Shown piece after piece: positions 1,984 to 40,095 of a stretch of DNA of 42,333 nucleotides. Made by a program: the position numbers and the translations under genes. Position 1 is the first letter of the stretch, and each line of letters opens with the position of its first letter. The stretch is from a virus (taxonomy: Duplodnaviria; Caudoviricetes). The stretch lies in IMG/VR virus record IMGVR_UViG_3300037419_000510, positions 1 through 42,333 of that record; one strand, written 5' to 3'. The notes under the pieces are model-generated. The model did not search any database. It had not been told where the DNA came from and saw only the letters and a list, made by a program, of their open reading frames with translations.

Positions 1984-2183
1984 TGATCCACGATCTTTCC
2001 CGCGTGCTGGTCGCGCAACAGACGCATCGCCGCATGGTGGACGCCATGTCTCTGCGCCGCTGGGATAGGCAAACGCCATTCCTGATCGAGCGCGTCGATT
2101 TTCCCGCTGCTTCGGCCTCCACGGCGAACGGCACCTCTGTCCATGCCGAAGCGGACAAGTGCCAAGGATCTTCCCATGACTGA
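1983..2183 (+). CDS. hypothetical phage protein
   Basis: TGATG coupling to upstream ORF. Confidence 0.55.
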   Translation: MIHDLSRVLVAQQTHRRMVDAMSLRRWDRQTPFLIERVDFPAASASTANGTSVHAEADKCQGSSHD

Positions 2184-2958
2184 GACCGCAATCGCGCACC
2201 GCGAAGGAGCGGCGCTTGCCGAGGTGCAAGACTATTCCGCTGGCTTGCTTGCAGTGATTGAGCGCGCCGCCCGTGACCCCTCTGTCGATATCGACAAGAT
2301 GGAGCGGCTGCTTGCGATGCAGGAGCGCGTATATCAGCGCAACGCGGAAGAAGCGTTTAACGCCGCTATGACGGCGGCCCAGGCTGAGATGCGTCCGGTT
2401 TCTGCAGACGCCAGCAACCCGCAGACGAAAAGCAGCTATGCCAGCTACGCCCAATTGGATCGTGCGCTCCGTCCAATATATACCAAAAACGGTTTCGCAC
2501 TAAGCTTCGATGAAGGGGATAGCCCCAAGCCTGAGCATGTGCGCGTCCTCTGCTACGTCTCCCACATTGGGGGATTCACCCGCACTTATCATCGCGACAT
2601 GCCCGCCGATGGCAAGGGTGCCAAGGGTGGCGACGTTATGACCAAGACGCACGCTGCGGGCGCTGCGGGGTCGTACGGTTCGCGCTACCTTCTCAAGGGC
2701 ATTTTCAACGTGGCGGTCGGTGAGGACGACAGCGACGGCAACGACAATGCCGAATACATATCCGAACGCCAGATCAAGACGATTAACGACATGCTCGGCG
2801 AATACAATCTGAGTTCGGTCAAGCTGTGCGCCTATATGAAAATCCCGAATGTGCCAGCCATGCTGGCGAGGGACTATCGCACGGCGATTGAGTCTATCAA
2901 CGCGACGATCGCACAACGTCAAGCCAAAGCCGCTGCGGTGCAAGGTTCCGCCCAATGA
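2176..2958 (+). CDS. ERF-family single-strand annealing protein
   Basis: DIDKMERLL, NPQTKSSYASY, GAAGSYGSRYLLKGIFNV..GEDDSDG motifs; adjacent to exonuclease. Confidence 0.85.
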   Translation: MTETAIAHREGAALAEVQDYSAGLLAVIERAARDPSVDIDKMERLLAMQERVYQRNAEEAFNAAMTAAQAEMRPVSADASNPQTKSSYASYAQLDRALRPIYTKNGFALSFDEGDSPKPEHVRVLCYVSHIGGFTRTYHRDMPADGKGAKGGDVMTKTHAAGAAGSYGSRYLLKGIFNVAVGEDDSDGNDNAEYISERQIKTINDMLGEYNLSSVKLCAYMKIPNVPAMLARDYRTAIESINATIAQRQAKAAAVQGSAQ

Positions 2959-3617
2959 TACAGGGCTCAGCAGAATGGTTTGCCGCCCGCTGCGGCAAGG
3001 TTACGGCCTCTCGGGTCGCGGATATCGTGGCCCGTACCAAAAGCGGTCACTCGGCATCCCGCGCTCAATATGAGGCGCAGCTGGTCGCCGAGCGCCTGAC
3101 TGGCGTTGTGGAACAGGGATTCAGCAATGCTGCCATGCAATGGGGTACTGAGCATGAAGCCGAGGCGAGGGCTGCATATTGCTTCCGGCAGGACATGGAG
3201 ATGCAGGAATGCGCTTTCGTTATCCACCCTGGCATCCCAGAAGCTGGGGCATCGCCTGACGGCCTGATAGGCGATGACGGCTTGGTCGAGATCAAGTGCC
3301 CGACGCTCGCGACCCATATTACCACGCTTCAAACAGGCACGGTGCCGGAAAAATACCGGACGCAGATGCTTTGGCAAATGGCGTGCACTGGACGCGAATG
3401 GTGTGACTTCGTTTCCTACGATCCGCGCTTACCTGCGTCGATGCGGCTGTTTGTGCAGCGCGTGGAGCGCGACGTGGAGGCCATCACAAAACTTGAATAT
3501 GAGGTGATGGAATTCCTGGCGGACGTGACGCGCAAAGTTGTCATGTTGCGGCGCAAGTTTGAGCCCGCCAATGATCCTGCCGCCAAAGCACTGGTCGATT
3601 TGGTGTGCGCCGGATGA
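2955..3617 (+). CDS. YqaJ/lambda-exonuclease family recombination nuclease
   Basis: QGSAEWFAARCGKVTAS, MQWGTEHE, GASPDGL, EIKCP, QMLWQM. Confidence 0.92.
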   Translation: MIQGSAEWFAARCGKVTASRVADIVARTKSGHSASRAQYEAQLVAERLTGVVEQGFSNAAMQWGTEHEAEARAAYCFRQDMEMQECAFVIHPGIPEAGASPDGLIGDDGLVEIKCPTLATHITTLQTGTVPEKYRTQMLWQMACTGREWCDFVSYDPRLPASMRLFVQRVERDVEAITKLEYEVMEFLADVTRKVVMLRRKFEPANDPAAKALVDLVCAG

Positions 3618-4200: not shown

Positions 4201-4636
4201 AACGCCTCCTCTGATATTTCGCTCTGAGTTCGGGCGGCTCGCCCCGGCCAACAGCGCTGCCCGTGAAGCGATGAAGGCCCTGACCGGTGAATGCCGGATC
4301 GAGATCAAGCGTTCGGGCGCAAACGAGCGTCGGCGCGGCTTTTATTGGGTCATGCTCGATGTGGCGGCGGAAGCGCTGACCGATGCGACCGGGTTCGCGT
4401 GGGATCAGGAGCTTTTACACAACGAACTGAAGCGACGGCTTGAGCTTGGCGAGACCTTCACGACGCCTGGCGGACACAAGGTGTTCAAGGCGCGATCGAC
4501 CAGCAACCGGGCGATGACGGAGCCTGAGCGGGCGCGCTGGACCGACCGCTGCGCCAACGTGCTTTCGCATTGGCTGGGCGTGCCGATGGCGGATCTGATC
4601 GATGAAGCGAAACGCAGGAATGGAGAGGCCGCATGA
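4193..4636 (+). CDS. NinB/DUF1367-like recombination-associated protein
   Basis: R...N.RRRGFYW, LHNELK, ARSTS..M pattern; position next to DUF968-like gene. Confidence 0.55.
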   Translation: MAETPPLIFRSEFGRLAPANSAAREAMKALTGECRIEIKRSGANERRRGFYWVMLDVAAEALTDATGFAWDQELLHNELKRRLELGETFTTPGGHKVFKARSTSNRAMTEPERARWTDRCANVLSHWLGVPMADLIDEAKRRNGEAA

Positions 4637-4998
4637 CCGGCAAGCCGATTGAAGCCTTTGGTCGAGACCCACAGGGGCTCGATGGCGAAGCCACGAAAGC
4701 GGCGGTCCGCGAAGCGGATGCCCCTGAAACTATAGCCCTCACCCAATCCCAACAGGCAATCCTAAATGGGCTTTCAGAGGCGCAGAGGCGGTTGATCCTA
4801 TGGCATCAGCCCAATTCTCCCGGCGTGGTCATGGTGCACACAAGGGGCATCGCCTACCGGGCGGCCGACGTGCTGCGGGCAAAAGGCATCACGCATAATC
4901 ACACGCACGGATGGGCAGAGCTTTCTCCGCTCGGCCTCGCAATCCGTGAAGCCCTTCTCCGCACCACCCTCCTACAGGCTAATAGAAATGGGAAATGA
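4633..4998 (+). CDS. hypothetical protein (N-terminus encoded by structured element A)
   Basis: ATGA-coupled, GGAGAGG RBS. Confidence 0.6.
   Translation: MTGKPIEAFGRDPQGLDGEATKAAVREADAPETIALTQSQQAILNGLSEAQRRLILWHQPNSPGVVMVHTRGIAYRAADVLRAKGITHNHTHGWAELSPLGLAIREALLRTTLLQANRNGK
4639..4722 (+). repeat. Structured element copy A
   Basis: GGCA-AG-CCG-ATTGAAGC...TCGAG/CTCGA...TGGC GAA GCCA-CGAAAG-CGG...TCCGC GAA GCGGA-TGCC. Confidence 0.85.
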
Positions 4999-5317
4999 GA
5001 TCATGGGTACTACATGGGACGTATTCTCGACCCGATCGCGCCTCGATGGAGGCAAAGACGTGCAGCTCACGGCTGGCGTCAATGTGTACGGTGATGGGCC
5101 GAAACGCACGATTGGCACCCTCGTAGGATTCTCGGACCAGGACAGGCTTATTGCCACCGCCGCGCCCGATTTGCTGGCGGCGCTGGAGAAGGCCGCACTG
5201 TTTGTCGGATGGGCCTCAACACGCGGGCAAATTCTTGCGGGCCACGATGCGGGCGAGCTTTGCGACGTTATCGACGCCGCCATCGCCAAAGCCACAGGCT
5301 CCCACCATGACCAATAA
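4988..5317 (+). CDS. hypothetical phage protein (RLIA.APDLLAALE motif)
   Basis: Common phage early-protein motif; start 4988 or 5003. Confidence 0.7.
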   Translation: MGNEIMGTTWDVFSTRSRLDGGKDVQLTAGVNVYGDGPKRTIGTLVGFSDQDRLIATAAPDLLAALEKAALFVGWASTRGQILAGHDAGELCDVIDAAIAKATGSHHDQ

Positions 5318-6410
5318 TACAAGGATAGTGAGCCAGAGGGCGCGTGAGGCTGCGGCTGCCATGTGGGAAGACATAGGCCGTTTCCAGTGGATGGAATGGC
5401 AACCGGGATTGTTCAGGGACGGAACCGGTGATCGCGGTCCTGTCGTCCAAGCCTTCGCCCGTTTCGAGGAAGAAACACTAGCGCTTTCGAGGGATGGGAA
5501 GCGGGATGCGGAAACTTGGAACGGAAGTTGGGCAACGCCACTCACGATGGGTCGGCACCAACGCGCCGACGATAGCTATTTCACCGTCTGGACTGATGAT
5601 GGCGACGAGACGTGGCTTTGGCAGAACGAGGTCGGATGCGCCAACGGTGACATTGAGCCATGTGGCCCAGTGATGGGGCCTTATGCCACAGCCGTTGATG
5701 CGGCGCGCGCTGCTTGGCCGAATCTCGCCCTCGCCACCCCCAAACACACTCGCGAAGCCGCCCAGGAGGGCTCCTGCCCGGAATGCGGTGGGAGCGTGTT
5801 CGGGCCTCACCACCTGGATAGCAAAGGGCGTCCTGTTTGCGGGGCGGCCACCAAAGACCTTATCCCGGAGAGCAATGCCTGGGATGGCCTAGATCTGGCC
5901 GGCGAGGCGCGATCACTGTTCGCTGCGGAGTTTCCAGGTGGAAATAGTCCCGACGATGCGGGGTTGGTCGCTGCTGGCGCCATCCGAGCCCTCGAAAAAG
6001 CCCTTAGCGCGCGCTCCCGACTGGAGAGCAATGCCGGGGTGAGAGAGGCGATTGCGCGGGCCATCGCGGAGCATGGGGCAACAGAGCCTTGGTGGTGGAG
6101 TGCCACGTTCGACGACGGCACAGACGGGACTGCGGCGCACCTGCGAGCGCAGGACCTCGTAACCGCAGACGCCATAATGGCCCTTCTCCCCGCATCTATC
6201 GATGTGCTGGGGAAAGCACGGGAGGCGTTGGAGCAGACGGCGGCCGACTTTGACGATTTGGCCGATCTTGCTCGCAAGCGAGTAGACGACGGCGACGAAA
6301 TGGGTTCGCCTTACTGGCGACAAACCCTGACCGACATCGCACAGGAAGCGCGCGACAATTCCATCCGCGCCCGCACCGCTTTGGCTTCTCTCACTGGGGA
6401 GGGGTTGTGA
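5307..6410 (+). CDS. mosaic hypothetical phage protein
   Basis: Long ORF overlapping both neighbours; internal CPEC zinc motif; start set at MTNNTR. Confidence 0.7.
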   Translation: MTNNTRIVSQRAREAAAAMWEDIGRFQWMEWQPGLFRDGTGDRGPVVQAFARFEEETLALSRDGKRDAETWNGSWATPLTMGRHQRADDSYFTVWTDDGDETWLWQNEVGCANGDIEPCGPVMGPYATAVDAARAAWPNLALATPKHTREAAQEGSCPECGGSVFGPHHLDSKGRPVCGAATKDLIPESNAWDGLDLAGEARSLFAAEFPGGNSPDDAGLVAAGAIRALEKALSARSRLESNAGVREAIARAIAEHGATEPWWWSATFDDGTDGTAAHLRAQDLVTADAIMALLPASIDVLGKAREALEQTAADFDDLADLARKRVDDGDEMGSPYWRQTLTDIAQEARDNSIRARTALASLTGEGL

Positions 6411-6934
6411 TGGATATCAAAGACTTAGGGCGCGTGCCAGAGGCACCGGGCTCTCGTGAACCGAGCCCTGCGGTCTCGGCCCTGACGGGCTTCGATCCCT
6501 TGCGCGATGAACTGGACCAGCTGATAGCCACCATGGATGAGCTTCTTCAGGCCGCCACGCCCGGAGAATGGATCTGGTACCAGAACGGCTGGGCGCCCCA
6601 CTGGACGGGCGAGAAGTTGGAATTCGTTTCTACCCCCGGCATGTTCAACGGCGTCGGCTCTGGTGACATGGACGGCGGCGATTGGGCTGTCGCAGCGTTC
6701 CAAGGCGACGGAGTGAACGGAGCGAACAACGCGCGCTTCATCACTTGCGCCAAGAACTGGATGCCCATTCTCTTGGAGTGCGCTCGCGCCGTCCGCGAAA
6801 TGGAGCGCCACGTTGATGCGTCAGCGATCGAAGCGGCGGCAGCCGGCGAGACTGCGGATGCAGGCTCGACCGTAGGCGAGAGCGCGGCCCGTCAGGGCGA
6901 CGCCCAATCCACACCGGGGACCCCACATGAATAA
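6407..6934 (+). CDS. Ead/Ea22-like protein bracketed by elements G and B
   Basis: ELLQAATPGEW...NARFITCAKN..P.LL motif. Confidence 0.65.
   Translation: MMDIKDLGRVPEAPGSREPSPAVSALTGFDPLRDELDQLIATMDELLQAATPGEWIWYQNGWAPHWTGEKLEFVSTPGMFNGVGSGDMDGGDWAVAAFQGDGVNGANNARFITCAKNWMPILLECARAVREMERHVDASAIEAAAAGETADAGSTVGESAARQGDAQSTPGTPHE
6430..6505 (-). repeat. Structured element copy G
   Basis: Reverse complement reads GCGC-AA-GGG-ATCGAAGC...CCGAG/CTCGG-TTCA-CGAGAG-CCC-G-GTGCC TCT GGCAC-GCGC. Confidence 0.88.
6818..6903 (+). repeat. Structured element copy B
   Basis: GCGTC-A-GCG-ATCGAAGC...CGAG/CTCG...CC GTA GG-CGAGAG-CGC-G-GCCC GTCA GGGC-GACGC. Confidence 0.88.
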
Positions 6935-7124
6935 TGATATGATCTCCCTTGCGGAACACCATGAGCGCCAAGGTTTGCTTTACGCTGAGGCTGCCACGTG
7001 CACAGCGGATTGGTATAAAGGCCAAGCCGCCGACACGCGCCGCGCTGCTGAGCATTTCACCGTCGCAGCCAGCTTAAGGGCTCGCGCTCTATCTACTGTT
7101 AGTAGGGGTGAAGTCATTGAATAA
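6927..7124 (+). CDS. hypothetical phage protein
   Basis: Overlaps upstream stop; 65 aa. Confidence 0.6.
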   Translation: MNNDMISLAEHHERQGLLYAEAATCTADWYKGQAADTRRAAEHFTVAASLRARALSTVSRGEVIE

Positions 7125-7129
7125 GCTGG

Positions 7130-7210
7130 ACGACCCCTTTGGGGCAACCTGCTGGCGGGCTTCGCCCTCAGCCGCTTCGCGGCTTCGCCGTCCCGGCGCT
7201 CATCAGGCGT
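7130..7210 (-). repeat. Variant multi-hairpin element F upstream of xis
   Basis: Reverse complement CCTG-ATGAGC-GCCG GGA CGGC-GAA-GCCGC GAA GCGGC-TGAG-GGC GAA GCC-CGCCAG-CAGG-TT-GCCCC AAA GGGGT. Confidence 0.6.
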
Positions 7211-7217
7211 ATGGGAA

Positions 7218-7412
7218 ATGACAGCCGCAGCTCGCTTCACGGAGGCGGACATTAAGCGCGCCATGAGCGGAGCGCGCAAGGCTGGCTTCCAGCAAGTCCG
7301 CGTGGGTATTGACGTACGCGGCAATCTCGTTGTGGATGCGAGCCTGGAGCCTGCGAACGAAATATTCGGCAACCCCAACCCTCTGGACCGCTTGCTACCG
7401 AAGGCGAGATGA
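7218..7412 (+). CDS. putative excisionase / recombination directionality factor
   Basis: ARFTEADIKRAMSGARKAG motif, small, ATGA-coupled directly upstream of integrase. Confidence 0.6.
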   Translation: MTAAARFTEADIKRAMSGARKAGFQQVRVGIDVRGNLVVDASLEPANEIFGNPNPLDRLLPKAR

Positions 7413-8482
7413 AAACACGCTATCCCAATGTGACGCTCTACAATGACCGGCATGGGAAGCTGCGCGCCCGATACCGTAAGACAGGGCTGCCCGAATATCA
7501 GTTCAAGAACCTGCCCGACATGCCGGGGTTCGAGGCCGAACTTAAGATCGCCCAAGCAGGAAAGATCGTGGTCGATCCGCCGCGCACGGTCATTCCGAGA
7601 TCCGTCAGCGACGGGCTCACGAAATATTATCGCAGCGCGAATTTCCTCAAAGGTGGTGATGAGGATCGGCGGCGACGGCGGGGCATTCTAGAGAGCTTCC
7701 GCAGAGAATATGGCGACGATCTGGTTGCCAACTTCAATTTCCAGCACATCGAAGCGATTCTGCTCGCCCGGAAGGAAAAGACCATCGATGAGCGCGGGCG
7801 CGTCGTGGGCGGCCCTGTCGCAGCCACGAACCTGAAGAAGCAGCTTAAGCGCTTTTTCCGGTACATGAAGAAGGTCGAATGGATCTTGAGCAACCCCGTG
7901 GAAGACGCGGAGCATCCCGGTAGCGCCAAGGTGGCCGGTTTCCACACATGGACCGAAGCTGAGATAGCCCGCTACAAGGCACGGCACCCGGTCGGCACGA
8001 AAGCCAGGCTTGCGCTCGAAATCATCCTGTGGACGTGGCAGCGGCGCGGGGATGCCCGCCTATTCGGGCCGAAGCACATCGTCCGCGGCAAAATCAATTT
8101 CACCGCCAGCAAGAACAAGGCGAACCTCTGGTTGCCTATCCCATCGGATCTAAGCCGCGCGATCGATGCAATGCCGAGCGTTGGCATCCAGACCTATCTA
8201 GTAACGGAATATGGCAAGCCCTTCACGGCGGAAGGATTCGGCAACTGGTTTCGCAAGCGCTGTGACGAAGCCGGACTGCCCCATTGCAGCGCCCACGGCT
8301 TGCGTAAGGCCGCAGCGACCCGCGCCGCACAGTCCGAGGCGACCCAGCAAGGGCTTAAGGCTGTCGGCGGCTGGCGAGGCGATGAAGAGGTTACGACCTA
8401 CACCGCAGCCGTCGAACAGGAGGCGCTTGCCGAATCCACCATGCAGCGCGTGGCCCAGAAATACGGCGACAGTGATGCATGA
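7409..8482 (+). CDS. int: tyrosine recombinase / phage integrase
   Basis: Catalytic R (WQRRGD), HGLRK, GGW, Y (VTTYT); N-terminal DRHGK.R.RYR arm-binding domain. Confidence 0.95.
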   Translation: MKTRYPNVTLYNDRHGKLRARYRKTGLPEYQFKNLPDMPGFEAELKIAQAGKIVVDPPRTVIPRSVSDGLTKYYRSANFLKGGDEDRRRRRGILESFRREYGDDLVANFNFQHIEAILLARKEKTIDERGRVVGGPVAATNLKKQLKRFFRYMKKVEWILSNPVEDAEHPGSAKVAGFHTWTEAEIARYKARHPVGTKARLALEIILWTWQRRGDARLFGPKHIVRGKINFTASKNKANLWLPIPSDLSRAIDAMPSVGIQTYLVTEYGKPFTAEGFGNWFRKRCDEAGLPHCSAHGLRKAAATRAAQSEATQQGLKAVGGWRGDEEVTTYTAAVEQEALAESTMQRVAQKYGDSDA

Positions 8483-8668
8483 TTTGGCGAACCATGGTGC
8501 GCCGCATTTGGCGAACCTCACAGAAAACGGCAGTTTTGCGCCCTTTCCGAGAAGGGATGGTGGCCCCGGAGGGACTACCACAAGTGAGCAATTTCAAACA
8601 CTAAGTTTGGCGAACCGTCCGCAAAATGCTGGTTTCGCCCCTTACTGCCCTGGCAAATTTGGCGAACC
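8483..8668. other. attP region: four TTTGGCGAACC arm-type repeats (8483, 8507, 8606, 8658) flanking the core
   Basis: Four exact 11-bp direct repeats, two on each side of a tRNA-like core, directly after the int stop. Confidence 0.85.
8558..8576 (-). other. attP core = 3' end of a host tRNA (AGTCCCTCCGGGGCCACCA)
   Basis: T-arm 3' half + acceptor strand + CCA; followed on the minus strand by hairpin CCCTT-CTCGGA-AAGGG (8541-8556). Confidence 0.8.
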
Positions 8669-8815
8669 TTTTGAGCGCCGTTCCAGCTCTCGCTCTACGG
8701 CTTCTCGGATGAACTCAGAACGCTTCCCTACCCCGGCAAGCGCATCGATCCGCGCCAGCACGTCAGGCGACAAACGGATGGCGGTGTATTTCACCCCGAG
8801 AGACGGACGGCCCAT
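8642..8815 (-). CDS. ribbon-helix-helix (CopG/Arc-like) regulator
   Basis: MGRPSLGVKYTAIRLSPDVLARIDAL...RSEFIREAVERELER; alternative start 8854. Confidence 0.8.
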   Translation of the reverse strand: MGRPSLGVKYTAIRLSPDVLARIDALAGVGKRSEFIREAVERELERRSKGSPNLPGQ

Positions 8816-8831
8816 GCGGGTGTCACTAGCC

Positions 8832-8905
8832 GTTACACAATTATTTTCAACCATCGCATTTTCCCGCTTGTGTTTCCGTTACACACAACATATAACAGTT
8901 ACACA
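8832..8905 (+). promoter_or_regulatory. Rightward sigma70-like promoter with three GTTACACA boxes
   Basis: TTGTGT(8868)-17 bp-TATAAC(8891); GTTACACA at 8832, 8878, 8898. Confidence 0.65.
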
Positions 8906-8920
8906 ATACGGAGGCAAGCA

Positions 8921-9127
8921 ATGATCACCCTGACGCTCACGGAATCCGAAGCAGCCCGCATCTGCTACGCCCTCGAAGCGGAGGCCAATGAAGCCAATCG
9001 CCGCGCATGGGACGAGAAGAAGAACGGCGCGCTTTTGGTGGCAAGCGGCAGGCTCCAGATGATCCATGAAGCGGCTCGCGATGAAGCGCTCAGGGTTGTG
9101 CGGCGCATTGAGGAGTTGGTAGCATGA
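8921..9127 (+). CDS. hypothetical protein, first gene of accessory operon
   Basis: GGAGG RBS before ATG 8921. Confidence 0.7.
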   Translation: MITLTLTESEAARICYALEAEANEANRRAWDEKKNGALLVASGRLQMIHEAARDEALRVVRRIEELVA

Positions 9128-9288
9128 ACGAGCTTCAGGCAGAGCGCTTGGCCAACCGGCTCAATGCTGAGTGCCGCGACAAGCTGCGCGTATCCTACGT
9201 GCATCGTCAGTCCAGCACGGGCTGGTGGGTCGAGAAATACGGCCCCGGCAAGAACGAATGGAAGATACTTAAGGAAGGGGAGTCTTAA
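9124..9288 (+). CDS. hypothetical protein (54 aa, not in ORF track)
   Basis: MNELQAERLANRL...KEGES; GAGGAG RBS, ATGA coupling. Confidence 0.6.
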   Translation: MNELQAERLANRLNAECRDKLRVSYVHRQSSTGWWVEKYGPGKNEWKILKEGES

Positions 9289-9383
9289 TGGCCGGCGCGA
9301 TCTTCTTCGGTGTCACCCTGCCGCTTGTGCTGATCGCATGGCGGCTGGGAGACATTGCCAAGCGCATCGGGGGCAAGGCATGA
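9288..9383 (+). CDS. 31-aa membrane peptide
   Basis: MAGAIFFGVTLPLVLIAWRLGDIAKRIGGKA; TAATG and ATGA coupling. Confidence 0.5.
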   Translation: MAGAIFFGVTLPLVLIAWRLGDIAKRIGGKA

Positions 9384-9562
9384 CCCATCTCACCCTTCGC
9401 CGCCTTCGCGCCATGGAAGCTGCAATCGCCGCTATGTTGGCTGGCGAAGAGGGTGAGGGAGATTGGCCACCCGAGATTGGCTCGGCAGATATGGAAACGG
9501 CCCACGATTGGGTCTGCGAGCAGATCGAAGCTCGCACTGCGCCAGTACGGGCCTCAACATAA
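9380..9562 (+). CDS. hypothetical protein
   Basis: MTHLTLRRLRAME..., ATGA coupling. Confidence 0.6.
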   Translation: MTHLTLRRLRAMEAAIAAMLAGEEGEGDWPPEIGSADMETAHDWVCEQIEARTAPVRAST

Positions 9563-9617
9563 CCCCTCCCCTGCTCAGAAAGGCTTTTAGTATGGTAATG
9601 TTTTCAGGAGAGTGGGG

Positions 9618-9923
9618 ATGAGGAAGTTCACCTTCCGCAAGGAGAAGCCAGAGACGGGCCTGAGCGCTGTCGGCAACCCGCGCCCATCCACCACTATCAA
9701 GCTGGGCGGAAAATGGTGCGGCACGATCCAAGCGCCCAACTGGCACTCAAAAGATGGAAAATGGGGCGTGGGGTTGATGGTCAAGGACGAAGACTGCACG
9801 GCTGGATGGCGTTGGGTATTCTTTCAGAAGCGGTTCGATGCAGAGCCGGACGCTCGGGAATGGCTCAACGCTAACGCCGAGGCCATCGCGAATAAGTATC
9901 AAATTCGTGTTGGGGATGATTGA
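9618..9923 (+). CDS. hypothetical protein
   Basis: AGGAG RBS; Trp-rich 101 aa. Confidence 0.7.
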   Translation: MRKFTFRKEKPETGLSAVGNPRPSTTIKLGGKWCGTIQAPNWHSKDGKWGVGLMVKDEDCTAGWRWVFFQKRFDAEPDAREWLNANAEAIANKYQIRVGDD

Positions 9924-9968
9924 TGCGCCCAACCTCTCTCCAATCACCCCAACAAAGGAACTAATAGA

Positions 9969-10232
9969 ATGAGTATGGTAGAGGTTGTGGCACGCGCGAT
10001 CTATTTTCGCGGAGATGATCAAGGTGATGCGGCATGGAAACACGCCCAACCCGGGCGCCGCTCTGTGGCTATTGAACAAGCCCGCGCCGCCATTGAGGCT
10101 ATGATGGAGTCTAGCATCGCGATGGTGAGGGCGGGTGAGGAAGAAATAACCTACGCCGCCGATGACATCATCAAGAACCGTGCCGAGCCTGTCTGGCAAT
10201 CCATGATCACCGCAGCATTAAAGGAGGGATAG
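9969..10232 (+). CDS. hypothetical phage protein (MVEVVARAI...ARAAIEAM type)
   Basis: AAAGGA RBS; common phage motif. Confidence 0.75.
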   Translation: MSMVEVVARAIYFRGDDQGDAAWKHAQPGRRSVAIEQARAAIEAMMESSIAMVRAGEEEITYAADDIIKNRAEPVWQSMITAALKEG

Positions 10233-10235
10233 GGT

Positions 10236-10610
10236 ATGTGCATCATCTGCAATTTGCGAGATCCACAAAAGGATGTCGATGCGGCGGTAGCTTTCCTAAG
10301 CGCCTACGAGGCGTCACAGCGATCCATGGAAAAGGCGGCTCAAGCGATGCTAGCAGTCTCCAAGCTGGACCTGTCCGACGATGAGTTGCGCATGCTGGCC
10401 CGCCTGCCCGAATGGCCCACGAATATGCAGATCGAGGAGGAGGATCACCCGACCGCTCGCCACCTCGAAAAGCTTGGGCTGATCAAGGTGAGCCGGCAGA
10501 GGATGGACCCCGTTGCACACTGGCCAGACTGGTTCGCCGGAAAGTTGCCAGCCGCTTCACTGTCCGAGTCCCCCACCCCCGCCCCCAAATCGTGCGGGGT
10601 GGGGAGGTGA
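10236..10610 (+). CDS. hypothetical protein
   Basis: GGAGGG RBS; 124 aa. Confidence 0.7.
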   Translation: MCIICNLRDPQKDVDAAVAFLSAYEASQRSMEKAAQAMLAVSKLDLSDDELRMLARLPEWPTNMQIEEEDHPTARHLEKLGLIKVSRQRMDPVAHWPDWFAGKLPAASLSESPTPAPKSCGVGR

Positions 10611-10852
10611 GCAACGAAGCTCTGCTGTCCGAACTGGAACGGGCCAAGGTTCTGTTCCAGGCCCGCGCTGTGGCCGCCGTGATGGGGTTACCGCAGCCTA
10701 CGTCGCTCGACAACCGACCAGACGGCAGCGGGTTGGATGATGGCCCCTGGTTGCCGGGATGCGCGCCTCGCAAAAAGCCCGAGCCCAAATCGCCGGAAGA
10801 ACTGGCTGCGATCCGCGCCAAGGCATGGGCCACACGAAGGAGCAAGGAATGA
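10607..10852 (+). CDS. hypothetical protein
   Basis: GTGA coupling; C-terminal IRAKAWATRR. Confidence 0.65.
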   Translation: MSNEALLSELERAKVLFQARAVAAVMGLPQPTSLDNRPDGSGLDDGPWLPGCAPRKKPEPKSPEELAAIRAKAWATRRSKE

Positions 10853-11049
10853 AGCCGCCACGCATCGCCAGCAGCTACGCCATCGTGGACATCACGAAAG
10901 GCCGGAAGGCGCTTGCAAAGCACATCAAGAAGCATGGCCCGGTTTCCGTCGTGATCCATGCGACGTTGGACGGCGAGTACGGGAGAGATGACGGCACGTC
11001 GATCGAGTTCAATGCGACAGTCACCTGCCTAGCCCTCTCCCCCACCTAA
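10849..11049 (+). CDS. hypothetical protein
   Basis: AAGGAG RBS, ATGA coupling. Confidence 0.65.
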   Translation: MKPPRIASSYAIVDITKGRKALAKHIKKHGPVSVVIHATLDGEYGRDDGTSIEFNATVTCLALSPT

Positions 11050-11080
11050 CCGACCCTATTATAGGAATGAAGGGATTGAA

Positions 11081-11410
11081 ATGATGGAAGAAAATAAGGG
11101 GAATGGCGCTTCGGCTGATGCCGACCGGGCTTTCGCGGCTACGCCGTCGAGCCCTTCGGTCTCGCCCGTCCCGGCTTCAATCCCTAGCGCGTGGCGGCGG
11201 AACATGCAGATGGATTGGTCCACCGAAAACGGCATCGTCACGTTGATCTATCCGGGCGACCTGACTGACATCGACATCGATGATGTCGAGCGACTGTTAG
11301 ACCTTTCCATCAGGGGAATGCGTAGGCGCGCGTCAGCGATCGAAGCCCGGAGGGCGGCGACCCTGGGCGCCGTTCACGAGAGCGCGGTCGGCAAAGCCGA
11401 GACGCCCTGA
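11081..11410 (+). CDS. hypothetical protein bracketed by elements C and D
   Basis: ORF whose two ends are read through structured elements; real start may be internal. Confidence 0.55.
   Translation: MMEENKGNGASADADRAFAATPSSPSVSPVPASIPSAWRRNMQMDWSTENGIVTLIYPGDLTDIDIDDVERLLDLSIRGMRRRASAIEARRAATLGAVHESAVGKAETP
11106..11190 (-). repeat. Structured element copy C
   Basis: Reverse complement GCGCT-A-GGG-ATTGAAGC...CGAG/CTCG...CGGC GTA GCCG-CGAAAG-CCC-GG-TCGGC ATCA GCCGA-AGCGC. Confidence 0.88.
11330..11405 (+). repeat. Structured element copy D
   Basis: GCGTC-A-GCG-ATCGAAGC...CGGCG/CGCCG-TTCA-CGAGAG-CGC-GG-TCGGC AAA GCCGA-GACGC. Confidence 0.88.
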
Positions 11411-11444
11411 ATCCTCCCCTTCCACCTGACAAAGGATATGGATC

Positions 11445-11918
11445 ATGAATGAGTTAGAAGCGCTGGCGGAGAGGGTGGAGAAGGCGGAGGGGCCTGATCG
11501 GGAGTTGGATGCGCGCATTTGGTGCGTCGTGGGCGTTGGCTCTCCGTGGAATGCGGAAAATTGCTGGCTGGCGGCGACCGTCCGACCTCCTGAAATGGAA
11601 ACGTCAGGCATTGATCTATCTGGGTGGCTGGATCGCTGCCCTGAGATGGCCGCCGATCTGGCGAAGTCGTACAACGTCCCAGCCTACACCGCCAGCATCG
11701 ACGCCGCCATGACGCTGGTGCCGGAGGGATACCCAGCTCGACAGGTCGGATCGACTGACGACGGTCGCGGATATGCTGCCGTTGCTGGCAACGACATGCA
11801 CATGATGGCCGAAGACCCGGAAGAGTTCTTTGCCGAGGGCAATTCCGCCACACCTGCCCTCGCCCTCTGCGCCGCCGCTCTCCGCGCCCGTGCCCTAGCC
11901 CCCGCAATGCCTGTTTAG
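11445..11918 (+). CDS. hypothetical phage protein (GPDRELDA.I...YTASIDAAMTLVPEG...ATPALALCAAALRAR type)
   Basis: Recognisable alphaproteobacterial phage motif; AAGGA RBS. Confidence 0.8.
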   Translation: MNELEALAERVEKAEGPDRELDARIWCVVGVGSPWNAENCWLAATVRPPEMETSGIDLSGWLDRCPEMAADLAKSYNVPAYTASIDAAMTLVPEGYPARQVGSTDDGRGYAAVAGNDMHMMAEDPEEFFAEGNSATPALALCAAALRARALAPAMPV

Positions 11919-11935
11919 ATGAGAGGATTTTAGGG

Positions 11936-12232
11936 ATGGAACAGCTTAGCCAAGAACTTATCAACGAGATGACCGGCCCAGGCATGTATCGTGTCATCGA
12001 GGTGAGCTTCGGATTTTCGCCGCAGCAATATTATCAGACTAAGGAGGGGCCGCTTTGGATACCGCTGCTCAAGAACGGCTACTGGGCCGATCCCGACGCT
12101 TATTCGACGGGCGAAGTCACGGTGTCTAGCATCATGCCTCACGAGGATGCTGAACGCGCTGTGTGGCTTGCCAAGAAGATCAATCACGAGCGCGGCGAAG
12201 GCCCTGCGGAACTGTCTGAATTCCACGCCTAG
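11936..12232 (+). CDS. hypothetical protein
   Basis: 98-aa ORF, GAGAGG RBS. Confidence 0.65.
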   Translation: MEQLSQELINEMTGPGMYRVIEVSFGFSPQQYYQTKEGPLWIPLLKNGYWADPDAYSTGEVTVSSIMPHEDAERAVWLAKKINHERGEGPAELSEFHA

Positions 12233-12263
12233 TTTAGCCACCCATACAGGAAGGGAATGAGCG

Positions 12264-12422
12264 ATGGACGAGGAACTTTTGGCTTTCTGCCGAGCCTTCA
12301 TCGATGCGCAGCGGATCAATTGCGCTGAGACGATCTACCAGACCGATCGCGTGATCGAGAATGCCTACGACTTCATCATGGGCATCTGCGAAATCGTTGG
12401 TTACGCCAAGGATCCCGCATGA
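12264..12422 (+). CDS. hypothetical protein (52 aa, not in ORF track)
   Basis: MDEELLAFCRAFIDAQRINCAETIYQTDRVIENAYDFIMGICEIVGYAKDPA. Confidence 0.6.
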   Translation: MDEELLAFCRAFIDAQRINCAETIYQTDRVIENAYDFIMGICEIVGYAKDPA

Positions 12423-12482
12423 CCGCCCCTACCTCTCTTCTGTCCCTTGGTGAGCGATAAGGTGTTGTTATTCGGAGCTATT

Positions 12483-12543
12483 CCGGCTTTCGTGGCTGCG
12501 CCATCACGCCCGCAAGCGGTCGTGACCAAAGGCTTCAATCCGG
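12483..12543 (-). repeat. Structured element copy E (core only)
   Basis: Reverse complement CCGG-ATTGAAGC-CTTTGG-TCACG/CGTGA-TGGC GCA GCCA-CGAAAG-CCGG. Confidence 0.85.
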
Positions 12544-12546
12544 GCT

Positions 12547-12789
12547 ATGGAGATTGATACGAGCTACGCAATACCCCCGAGCGGCGGCCCCGGATTTACC
12601 GAAGGAGCTCGCCCCAAATGCGTGTTCTGCAACGCCGACTGGACCGACGACATGATCCGCGTATTCGATGTGGACGCGAGCCATGGCGCCGATAGCTACG
12701 ACTTCGGGCCAGAGGGTGAGCGCGCAACGATCGATATCACCTGCTCGTCCTGTGAGAGGCTGATCTATCGCAAGGAATATCGCGCATGA
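12547..12789 (+). CDS. zinc-ribbon hypothetical protein
   Basis: CVFC...CSSC. Confidence 0.65.
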   Translation: MEIDTSYAIPPSGGPGFTEGARPKCVFCNADWTDDMIRVFDVDASHGADSYDFGPEGERATIDITCSSCERLIYRKEYRA

Positions 12790-39340: not shown

Positions 39341-40095
39341 GCTGCGAGCCTTTCGGTTTCCCGAGCGGCAAGAATTGCGCGACCGATTAGCTCGGGGATT
39401 TGAGGGACAACGGCGTTTCCGCACGAGGCAATACGCCCCACCCGATCGGGAACCCCATCACGCGCTCCACAAAGTCGGGGTGAGGGAAGATTGGATCGTC
39501 CGGGCCATCTCTCAGCCACTCGCGGAGATTGGAACGACAAGTCGGACTGCCGAAGTATCGGTTGCGGGGAGCGCCCTTCGCATCCGCTGACTTCGTGGGG
39601 GTAGGCAACCACCCACACTCGGTCCCGTTTATGCCAGGCCCCAAGGTAGGAAGCTGGTATGCAATACCATTCAGCATCATACCCGATCTCGGCCAACGAT
39701 CCGAGAACTCGGCCCATCCCGTTACCAAGCAACTCTGCGACGTTTTCCACGAGCACGTAGCGCGGTCGAAGTTCGCCAATAAGTCGCCGATAGTCATACC
39801 AGAGGCCGCTGCGCTCACCGTCGAGGCCTTCACGAGCGCCGGCAATGGATACGTCCTGACACGGGAATCCCCCGCAGATGATGTCAACGGCAACTCCATC
39901 GGCAGCAAGCCGCTCTCCGGTGAGGGTTCGGACATCGTCATAGCAGGGCACCTTGGGCCAATGTTTCGCCAACACACGCTGGCAGAACGGATCGATCTCG
40001 CAGAACGCTACGGTCTCGAAACCGCCCGTGCGCTCAAGGCCAAGGTCGAAACCGCCAATTCCGGCGAACAGGGAAAGGACGCGCAGCTTGATCAT
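39337..40095 (-). CDS. DNA (cytosine-5) methyltransferase, large (alpha) chain
   Basis: FAGIGG (I), GGFPCQD (IV), ENV (VI), HKRDRVW (VIII), GNAVVP (X); motif IX not seen in this frame. Confidence 0.92.
   Translation of the reverse strand: MIKLRVLSLFAGIGGFDLGLERTGGFETVAFCEIDPFCQRVLAKHWPKVPCYDDVRTLTGERLAADGVAVDIICGGFPCQDVSIAGAREGLDGERSGLWYDYRRLIGELRPRYVLVENVAELLGNGMGRVLGSLAEIGYDAEWYCIPASYLGAWHKRDRVWVVAYPHEVSGCEGRSPQPILRQSDLSFQSPRVAERWPGRSNLPSPRLCGARDGVPDRVGRIASCGNAVVPQIPELIGRAILAARETERLAA
39387..39941 (-). CDS. nested alternative-frame small (beta) chain of the C5 methyltransferase
   Basis: Open frame fully inside MTase gene; SWKTSQ, WPRSGMM.NG..Y, LPTP, P.FVERVMGFPIGW (motif IX-like); start uncertain (39977/39941/39935). 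Confidence 0.75.
   Translation of the reverse strand: MTMSEPSPESGLLPMELPLTSSAGDSRVRTYPLPALVKASTVSAAASGMTIGDLLANFDRATCSWKTSQSCLVTGWAEFSDRWPRSGMMLNGIAYQLPTLGPGINGTECGWLPTPTKSADAKGAPRNRYFGSPTCRSNLREWLRDGPDDPIFPHPDFVERVMGFPIGWGVLPRAETPLSLKSPS

Follow-up and report, generated by a model that had tools for sequence, protein, structure and literature searches.

Several structured DNA signals have been described in mobile elements and bacterial genomes. PriA sites, such as the phiX174 primosome assembly site (pas) and the ColE1 single-strand initiation (ssi) sites ssiA and ssiB, are short, strand-specific folds of single-stranded DNA (ssDNA) built of GNA mini-hairpins. The F plasmid carries class 1 ssDNA promoters (Frpo/ssiD) in its leading region. 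Repetitive extragenic palindromic (REP) elements with TnpA-REP, Ssn-related motifs and attC sites are units read by structure as ssDNA. Flavo-1 (RF01705; Weinberg et al. 2010, PMC2864571) is a dispersed repeat in Flavobacterium that, in the available text of PMC9723704, is indifferent to transcription. Here, we analyse a family of multi-hairpin elements in IMG/VR record IMGVR_UViG_3300037419_000510, a linear virus record of 42,333 bases analysed as a whole (the window), with an estimated completeness of 82%. The element is a real, widespread structured DNA and, judged from sequence comparison, a new variant related to Flavo-1, with a function that we infer. The best single reading, at a probability of about 0.5, is that it would be a host-read, PriA-primosome-like single-strand initiation signal, because of its placement on ssDNA genomes and transferred strands, its retention at the same site across diverged elements and the modules it shares with ColE1.

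An earlier note on this DNA had described six copies on both strands of the accessory region, and sequence check, structure descriptor and covariance model R1 all place them at the positions and strands claimed (copies A to E and G; Table 1). The descriptor gave exactly six matches in the window and none in 100 dinucleotide shuffles. R1, built from 47 copies with D and G in its seed, recovers the six at E-values of 4e-16 to 8e-5. In the consensus layout, P1 (GCG-N with N-CGC) is followed by a three-base spacer, P2, an A-G mismatch, a T-A pair, a free x:y pair and GAAG opposite CGA. Next come hairpin H1, the P3 stem enclosing H2, and an optional H3, with H4 preceding the closing arm. The P2 and P3 pairs proposed in the note are present in the copies, and ATT indeed goes with CGAAAG (A, C, E) and ATC with CGAGAG (B, D, G).

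The pairing is kept by covariation. The first two viral pattern scans returned mostly chance matches (three P2 pairs in 25 of 241 loci, about 17 real by eye) and were replaced by stricter ones. In each of four viral scans, x was held at a different letter with y and P2 unconstrained; the letters fixed in the pattern are conserved by construction. Among the 385 unique viral matches, x:y was Watson-Crick in 278. Both P2 pairs were kept in 216 matches, and x:y was Watson-Crick in 210 of these (77 C-G, 69 T-A, 50 G-C and 14 A-T). The R1 seed was selected for P1, P2, x:y and H1, not for P3, in which all six pairs vary on both sides and 90% of the cells are paired. A separate count of P3 cells gave 881 Watson-Crick, 15 G-T and 85 mismatched. 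Minimum-energy folds of single sequences with DNA parameters contain the P2-core helix in A, B and E; the consensus fold rests on covariation, because these folds miss the helix in D and G.

The first-hairpin loops (n = 302) comprise 201 GNA and 42 GNNA loops and no TTCG. With DNA energies, the fold of the element strand is more stable than that of its complement in 135 of 150 cases; with RNA energies, this holds for 90 of 150. Both GNA loops and tandem G-A pairs are well suited to DNA. Loop type, the few G-T pairs and the strand asymmetry favour DNA over RNA, and the element is a conserved, covarying multi-hairpin motif, probably folded as ssDNA. The folded-ssDNA idea of the earlier note thereby gains support from P3 pair types, loop types, fold-energy asymmetry and strand placement. 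That the element acts as RNA, as Flavo-1 was originally filed, is very improbable. Covariation by itself cannot separate RNA from ssDNA (PMC5737381, available text) and Flavo-1 is entered in Rfam as a small RNA; however, both orientations occur inside one operon-like gene run, plasmid copies are placed on the template strand, loops are of DNA type with scarce G-T pairs, and Flavo-1 itself, in the accessible part of PMC9723704, is found sense and antisense alike with many copies outside transcribed regions.

The earlier note could assign the element to no named family. Rfam gives no match at gathering threshold and all copies fall below the Flavo-1 gathering score, but the outer scaffold is that of Flavo-1. 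Copy E scores best (22.6 bits versus a gathering score of 42); its alignment covers the outer helix and leaves the inner 43 model positions empty. None of 20 other family loci gave a Flavo-1 match. Both families share the outer helix with A-G mismatch, T-A pair, free x:y pair and G.AG...CG.A loop, as well as both flank types, GCG-NNA-GGGAT...AGCCCG.CC and TAGCC-CCGAT...AGCGGGA (alignment in the available part of the PMC2864571 supplement). The Flavo-1-type 5' scaffold is present in 213 of 324 members. Whereas the inner domain of Flavo-1 is one long T-tract hairpin, that of the element is a junction of H1, P3 and the optional H3. Unlike Flavo-1, the element has the extra H4 and a closing P1 arm, and occurs in few copies, mainly in mobile elements of Proteobacteria. 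The family is related to Flavo-1 and is not a member of it by score. Variants in L919 (22079, 23790, 26295), L402, L427, L532 and L579 retain either P1 and P2 or the inner hairpins, but their GAAG/CGA core or their entire inner domain is replaced. By their sequences, these core-replaced variants point to a possible wider modular superfamily.

The family is distributed over viruses, chromosomes and plasmids. The four viral patterns gave an estimated 300, 310 and 330 and an observed 99 stored stretches, more than half of them structured. One sub-pattern gave about 440 GTDB stretches, mostly from Alpha- and Gammaproteobacteria with one from Selenomonas, and the element is present in all 122 loci examined among them. 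At a loose cut-off, copy G matches 805 plasmid records, of which 570 are conjugative. Only 5 of 41 Sphingomonad-family genomes gave a match, and therefore the element is no standing chromosomal repeat in those searched. A Pseudomonadales chromosome (G009:C1) carries eight dispersed copies without a Y1 transposase. No description of the element from phages or plasmids turned up in our literature search; it may be included in the early papers on ssi and CUP (Nomura 1991; Masai 1990 and 1997; Delver and Belogurov 1997) or among the candidate viral structures of PMC10690425.

Among ssDNA phages, five microviruses carry one copy each, intergenic and on the gene-sense strand in all five (p 0.06 alone); this is presumably the virion strand. 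In three of the five, the copy is followed, about 45-50 nt further 3', by a CTTGAT..TGACACC motif, which we take to be the plus-strand origin from its likeness to phiX174. The slot just 5' of the plus-strand origin is the usual place of a single-strand origin. In one of the five, the copy directly follows the capsid gene, the position of the pas in phiX174. One inovirus-like prophage has the element on the zot strand. A role as general microvirus origin was rejected, as none of 72 related microviruses carries the element. In element-free microviruses (L844-L915), other GC-rich hairpin sets occupy the corresponding slot, about 170 nt 5' of the same motif. From their sequences, these alternative sets look like exchangeable origin modules.

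In conjugative plasmids, the IncN leading-region repeats are putatively CUP-bearing. Leading-region copies number two in F (about 58091-58173 and 63479-63561 of its record), three in pN-Cit and three variants in R46, all on the strand complementary to that of the leading genes, presumably the transferred one (established knowledge and the available text of PMC11541004). Each F copy lies at the far end of a duplicated 559-nt Frpo unit, about 115 nt 3' of ssiD, and the R46 counterpart forms the distal end of the 655-nt repeat on the same strand. Unlike the Frpo/ssiD promoter, the element lies beyond the published ssiD sequence, has no counterpart in ColIb-P9 and occurs without Frpo in phages. 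In GTDB loci, 20 of 21 element-marker pairs have the element on the template strand of an ardC, parB-like or ssb gene, in 17 cases upstream (pairs from 16 of 80 loci, two overlapping), and all 21 neighbouring copies are direct. Rifampicin does not abolish the conversion of F in recipients (10.64898/2026.01.09.698686, available text).

The element resembles PriA sites in being a short, probably strand-specific ssDNA fold of GNA mini-hairpins in similar slots on ssDNA genomes; its strand asymmetry and placement would suit a site that works on one strand. It has modules in common with both ColE1 sites, including an AAG-hairpin-CG junction; as this junction was derived by visual inspection of phiX174 and ColE1, matches there are circular. 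The two longest words that ColE1 has in common with 389 members are a 15-mer (minus, 1553) and a 14-mer (plus, 1330), positions which we presume to be those of ssiB and ssiA. The module AAG-CCCG..GGG-C is found in 181 of the 389 members, and an ssiA-type GAGCGNAGCGA apex precedes 7 of 363 members versus 0.06 expected. The module order differs from that of the PriA sites. The available text of PMC3167613 gives only the order of ssiA and ssiB.

On these grounds, a host replication protein would read the folded strand, most probably PriA rather than primase or RNA polymerase; PriA as the reader is the weakest link. A PriA-type primosome would load on the element, and complementary-strand synthesis would begin on mobile DNA that has turned single-stranded. 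On a plasmid, loading just 3' of the leading-region ssDNA promoter would send the primosome away from oriT, priming the later-entering DNA and leaving the leading operon single-stranded for longer. In the window phage, copies would act on whichever strand exonuclease resection or rolling-circle replication exposes.

Several observations weigh against an initiation signal. R1 gives no whole-element match at E 5 or better to the phiX174 pas or either ColE1 site, nor one to F ssiE, and the short words in common may reflect generic stable GNA mini-hairpins; a 13-mer common with phiX174 falls outside its pas. The F copies are outside the published ssiD and ssiE sequences, and the GAAG/CGA core is replaced in the R46 copies. 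The element is replaceable, because none of the 72 related microviruses and none of the 42 kb of ColIb-P9, which include the leading region, carries it. Flavo-1 copies are not biased towards either replichore (39 of 68 and 18 of 31; p 0.20 and 0.995 in a best-split permutation test); a bias apparent in the first 24 rows vanished with all 68. The window phage has its own primase-helicase, and inverted-pair cassettes bracketing small genes are not predicted by priming.

The same template-strand placement would also suit a barrier or decoy, in which the fold would delay synthesis of the complementary strand, impede nucleases or capture a host sensor, thereby keeping leading or accessory anti-defence genes protected or in single-stranded form. 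We consider this improbable. In F and in ICEs (integrative and conjugative elements), the template-strand copies do separate the ssDNA promoter from the incoming conversion front, neighbouring genes include ardC, ssb, psiB, DUF932 and Acb3 genes, and a different F hairpin, ssp2, is a demonstrated roadblock (10.64898/2026.01.09.698686, available text). However, the mapped F stall is at ssp2 and early transcription-dependent conversion is observed behind ssp1a/b (same text), and a roadblock beside the origin slot on the microvirus virion strand would be expected to hamper replication.

The window reads as a temperate phage, judged from its gene content, which also includes head genes, terminase and a minus-strand primase-helicase.

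Table 1. Copies of the element and associated features in the window (x:y, free pair; bits and E-value from R1)
Feature	Position	Strand	Remarks
Erf-like annealing protein and exonuclease genes	2143..3617	+	Gene context linked with the element in phages; outside the element itself
Copy A	4638..4724	+	x:y = T:A; 41 bits; inside 5' end of open reading frame (ORF) 4633-4998
Copy G	6428..6506	-	x:y = C:G; left partner of inverted pair; 5' end of ORF 6407-6934
G-B cargo coding stretch	6507..6816	+	Between copies G and B
Copy B	6817..6905	+	x:y = C:G; 59 bits; right partner; 3' end of ORF 6407-6934
Copy X	7128..7211	-	Seventh, diverged copy; E 0.05; canonical outer scaffold, altered core
Integrase	7409-8482		Phage tyrosine integrase, sole integrase of window (family matches phrog_1, phrog_216)
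Arc-like small gene	8642-8854	-	Near copies
Copy C	11104..11191	-	x:y = T:A; 66 bits; left partner of second inverted pair; 5' end of ORF 11081-11410
C-D cargo coding stretch	11192..11328	+	Between copies C and D
Copy D	11329..11407	+	x:y = C:G; right partner of second pair; 3' end of ORF 11081-11410
Copy E	12476..12550 (R1 match 12482-12542)	-	x:y = T:A; TAGCC-type scaffold; Flavo-1 match 22.6 bits

The copies are situated amid small genes without family matches, and the seven follow the strand order + - + - - + -. As proposed earlier, none lies in the structural or replication modules, where R1 gives no match with E < 0.1. The claim that copies on both strands stand among genes all on the plus strand holds for the copies, and fails for the genes only at the Arc-like one. 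Contigs from an independent soil run span G, B, most of C-D, and E with zero letter differences. The sequencing runs listed as holders include no RNA data set. Contig joints between copies in soil runs have short sides and were set aside as most likely other phages' copies. Copy X lies directly upstream of a small gene (7218-7412) that precedes the integrase; in a soil contig, a homolog of that gene likewise has a family-like piece upstream, on the same strand. The integrase gene is directly followed by four direct TTTGGCGAACC repeats (8484-8670), likely attP arm sites. A homolog search for the cargo of ORF 6407-6934 found only itself among 12 candidates of similar length.

Phage copies are arranged in a characteristic way. 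Neighbouring copies are divergent in 48 cases, direct in 32 and convergent in 26, and lie no more than 700 nt apart in 42 of the 48 divergent, 9 of the 26 convergent and 6 of the 32 direct cases (Fisher p 1e-10; pairs not independent). In 23 of 37 scored phage pairs the two copies are joined by a single ORF running through both, including G-B and C-D of the window and a pair in Sphingopyxis phage VSN-002, and the cargo is unrelated. The 5' edges of the element directly adjoin cargo codons. Compared with element-free relatives, homology ends 0, 0, 0, 0, 0, 5, 9, 40 and 65 nt from the 5' edge (at or near the edge in seven of nine) and 9-72 nt from the 3' edge (n = 7), in a small, non-independent sample in which three zeros come from one subject holding another structured unit. 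In two cases the element is at, or 6 nt from, the start codon of the element-free relative. The window itself has, near 40083, the element-free allele of a gene of another phage (L283, at 5001), in which the element lies 6 nt from the start-codon position. In two phage contigs (L278 2582-3478 and L328 3468-4364), the element is in the end of a gene of the Acb3 family, a CBASS (cyclic-oligonucleotide-based antiphage signaling system) inhibitor. Recurring peptide tails encoded by the element, e.g. AIEARRAET..GSVHESAV and PSGFDPSR, occur on unrelated small phage proteins and can yield false protein families.

These cassettes are better accounted for by a non-autonomous mobile or recombination unit than by priming. 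A trans-acting enzyme (HUH-like or an ssDNA nuclease) would read the folded ssDNA and join its 5' edge to new DNA, and inverted pairs would thereby capture and shuffle accessory genes in temperate phages. This is a possible though doubtful explanation, compatible with priming. The tight divergent pairs with a shared ORF and unrelated cargo speak for it, as does homology that stops at or near the 5' edge. Likewise, a pN-Cit copy has homology confined to the span from P1 arm to P1 arm, chromosomal copies are dispersed (eight in G009; 68 Flavo-1 rows in F. psychrophilum), and ssDNA insertion would also produce strand bias. Dispersed copies, in-frame gene insertion and gene-cassette association are equally features of REP/TnpA-REP, Ssn-related motifs and attC; attC cassettes, however, have direct repeats, whereas the short pairs here are inverted. 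Of the three guesses of the earlier note, the priming site best matches the wider distribution and an attC/REP-like site suits the phage cassettes, but the expected partners were not found. The window has no integron integrase, its sole integrase being the phage tyrosine integrase, and Y1_Tnp was detected in none of four genomes tested, including G009 and the incomplete window phage (82%), with a control positive in 6 of 14. Among 324 members, the degenerate Ssn SRM pattern of PMC11893778 (available text) occurs in none and the REP GTAG/GTGG tag at the hairpin foot in five. In the text of the supplement on TnpA-REP subclass 2.6 'atypical structures', no Flavo-type words occur. The junction sample is small, pair partners agree in x:y type in just 8 of 29 pairs, and diverged elements keep their copies at a common site upstream of ardC or ssb, which suggests a function in place.

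The gene context of the phage copies would also fit mere passengers, i.e. plasmid or ICE signals spread as short homology blocks by Erf and exonuclease recombination and tolerated as peptide tails. Erf or exonuclease homologs are present in 21 of the 93 loci that carry the element and in 1 of the 79 that do not, the copies are sense in 19 cases and antisense in 22, and the phage's own primase-helicase agrees with this. It is nevertheless rather unlikely that the window copies are passengers, given that compensatory changes preserve pairing in phage copies within reading frames and that homologous exchange alone does not make tight inverted pairs. Initiation signal, mobile unit, barrier, passengers and RNA are not mutually exclusive.

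Tentatively, one modular ssDNA fold, with Flavo-1 as its Bacteroidota branch, may serve hosts of different phyla as a general signal for the priming of mobile DNA. It might act as a rifampicin-resistant complementary-strand start in F, IncN plasmids and ICEs, as an exchangeable minus-strand origin in some ssDNA phages, and as a cassette boundary swapped at its 5' edge in the inverted pairs of temperate phages. The laboratory F plasmid itself carries two copies, and the family offers a testable handle on two open questions, the role of Flavo-1 and the priming of incoming plasmid DNA under a transcription block. If this is false, the family still stands as a natural structured DNA with good support, its cassette pattern unexplained; if true, one recognisable DNA fold would connect ssDNA phages, conjugative elements and gene shuffling in temperate phages.

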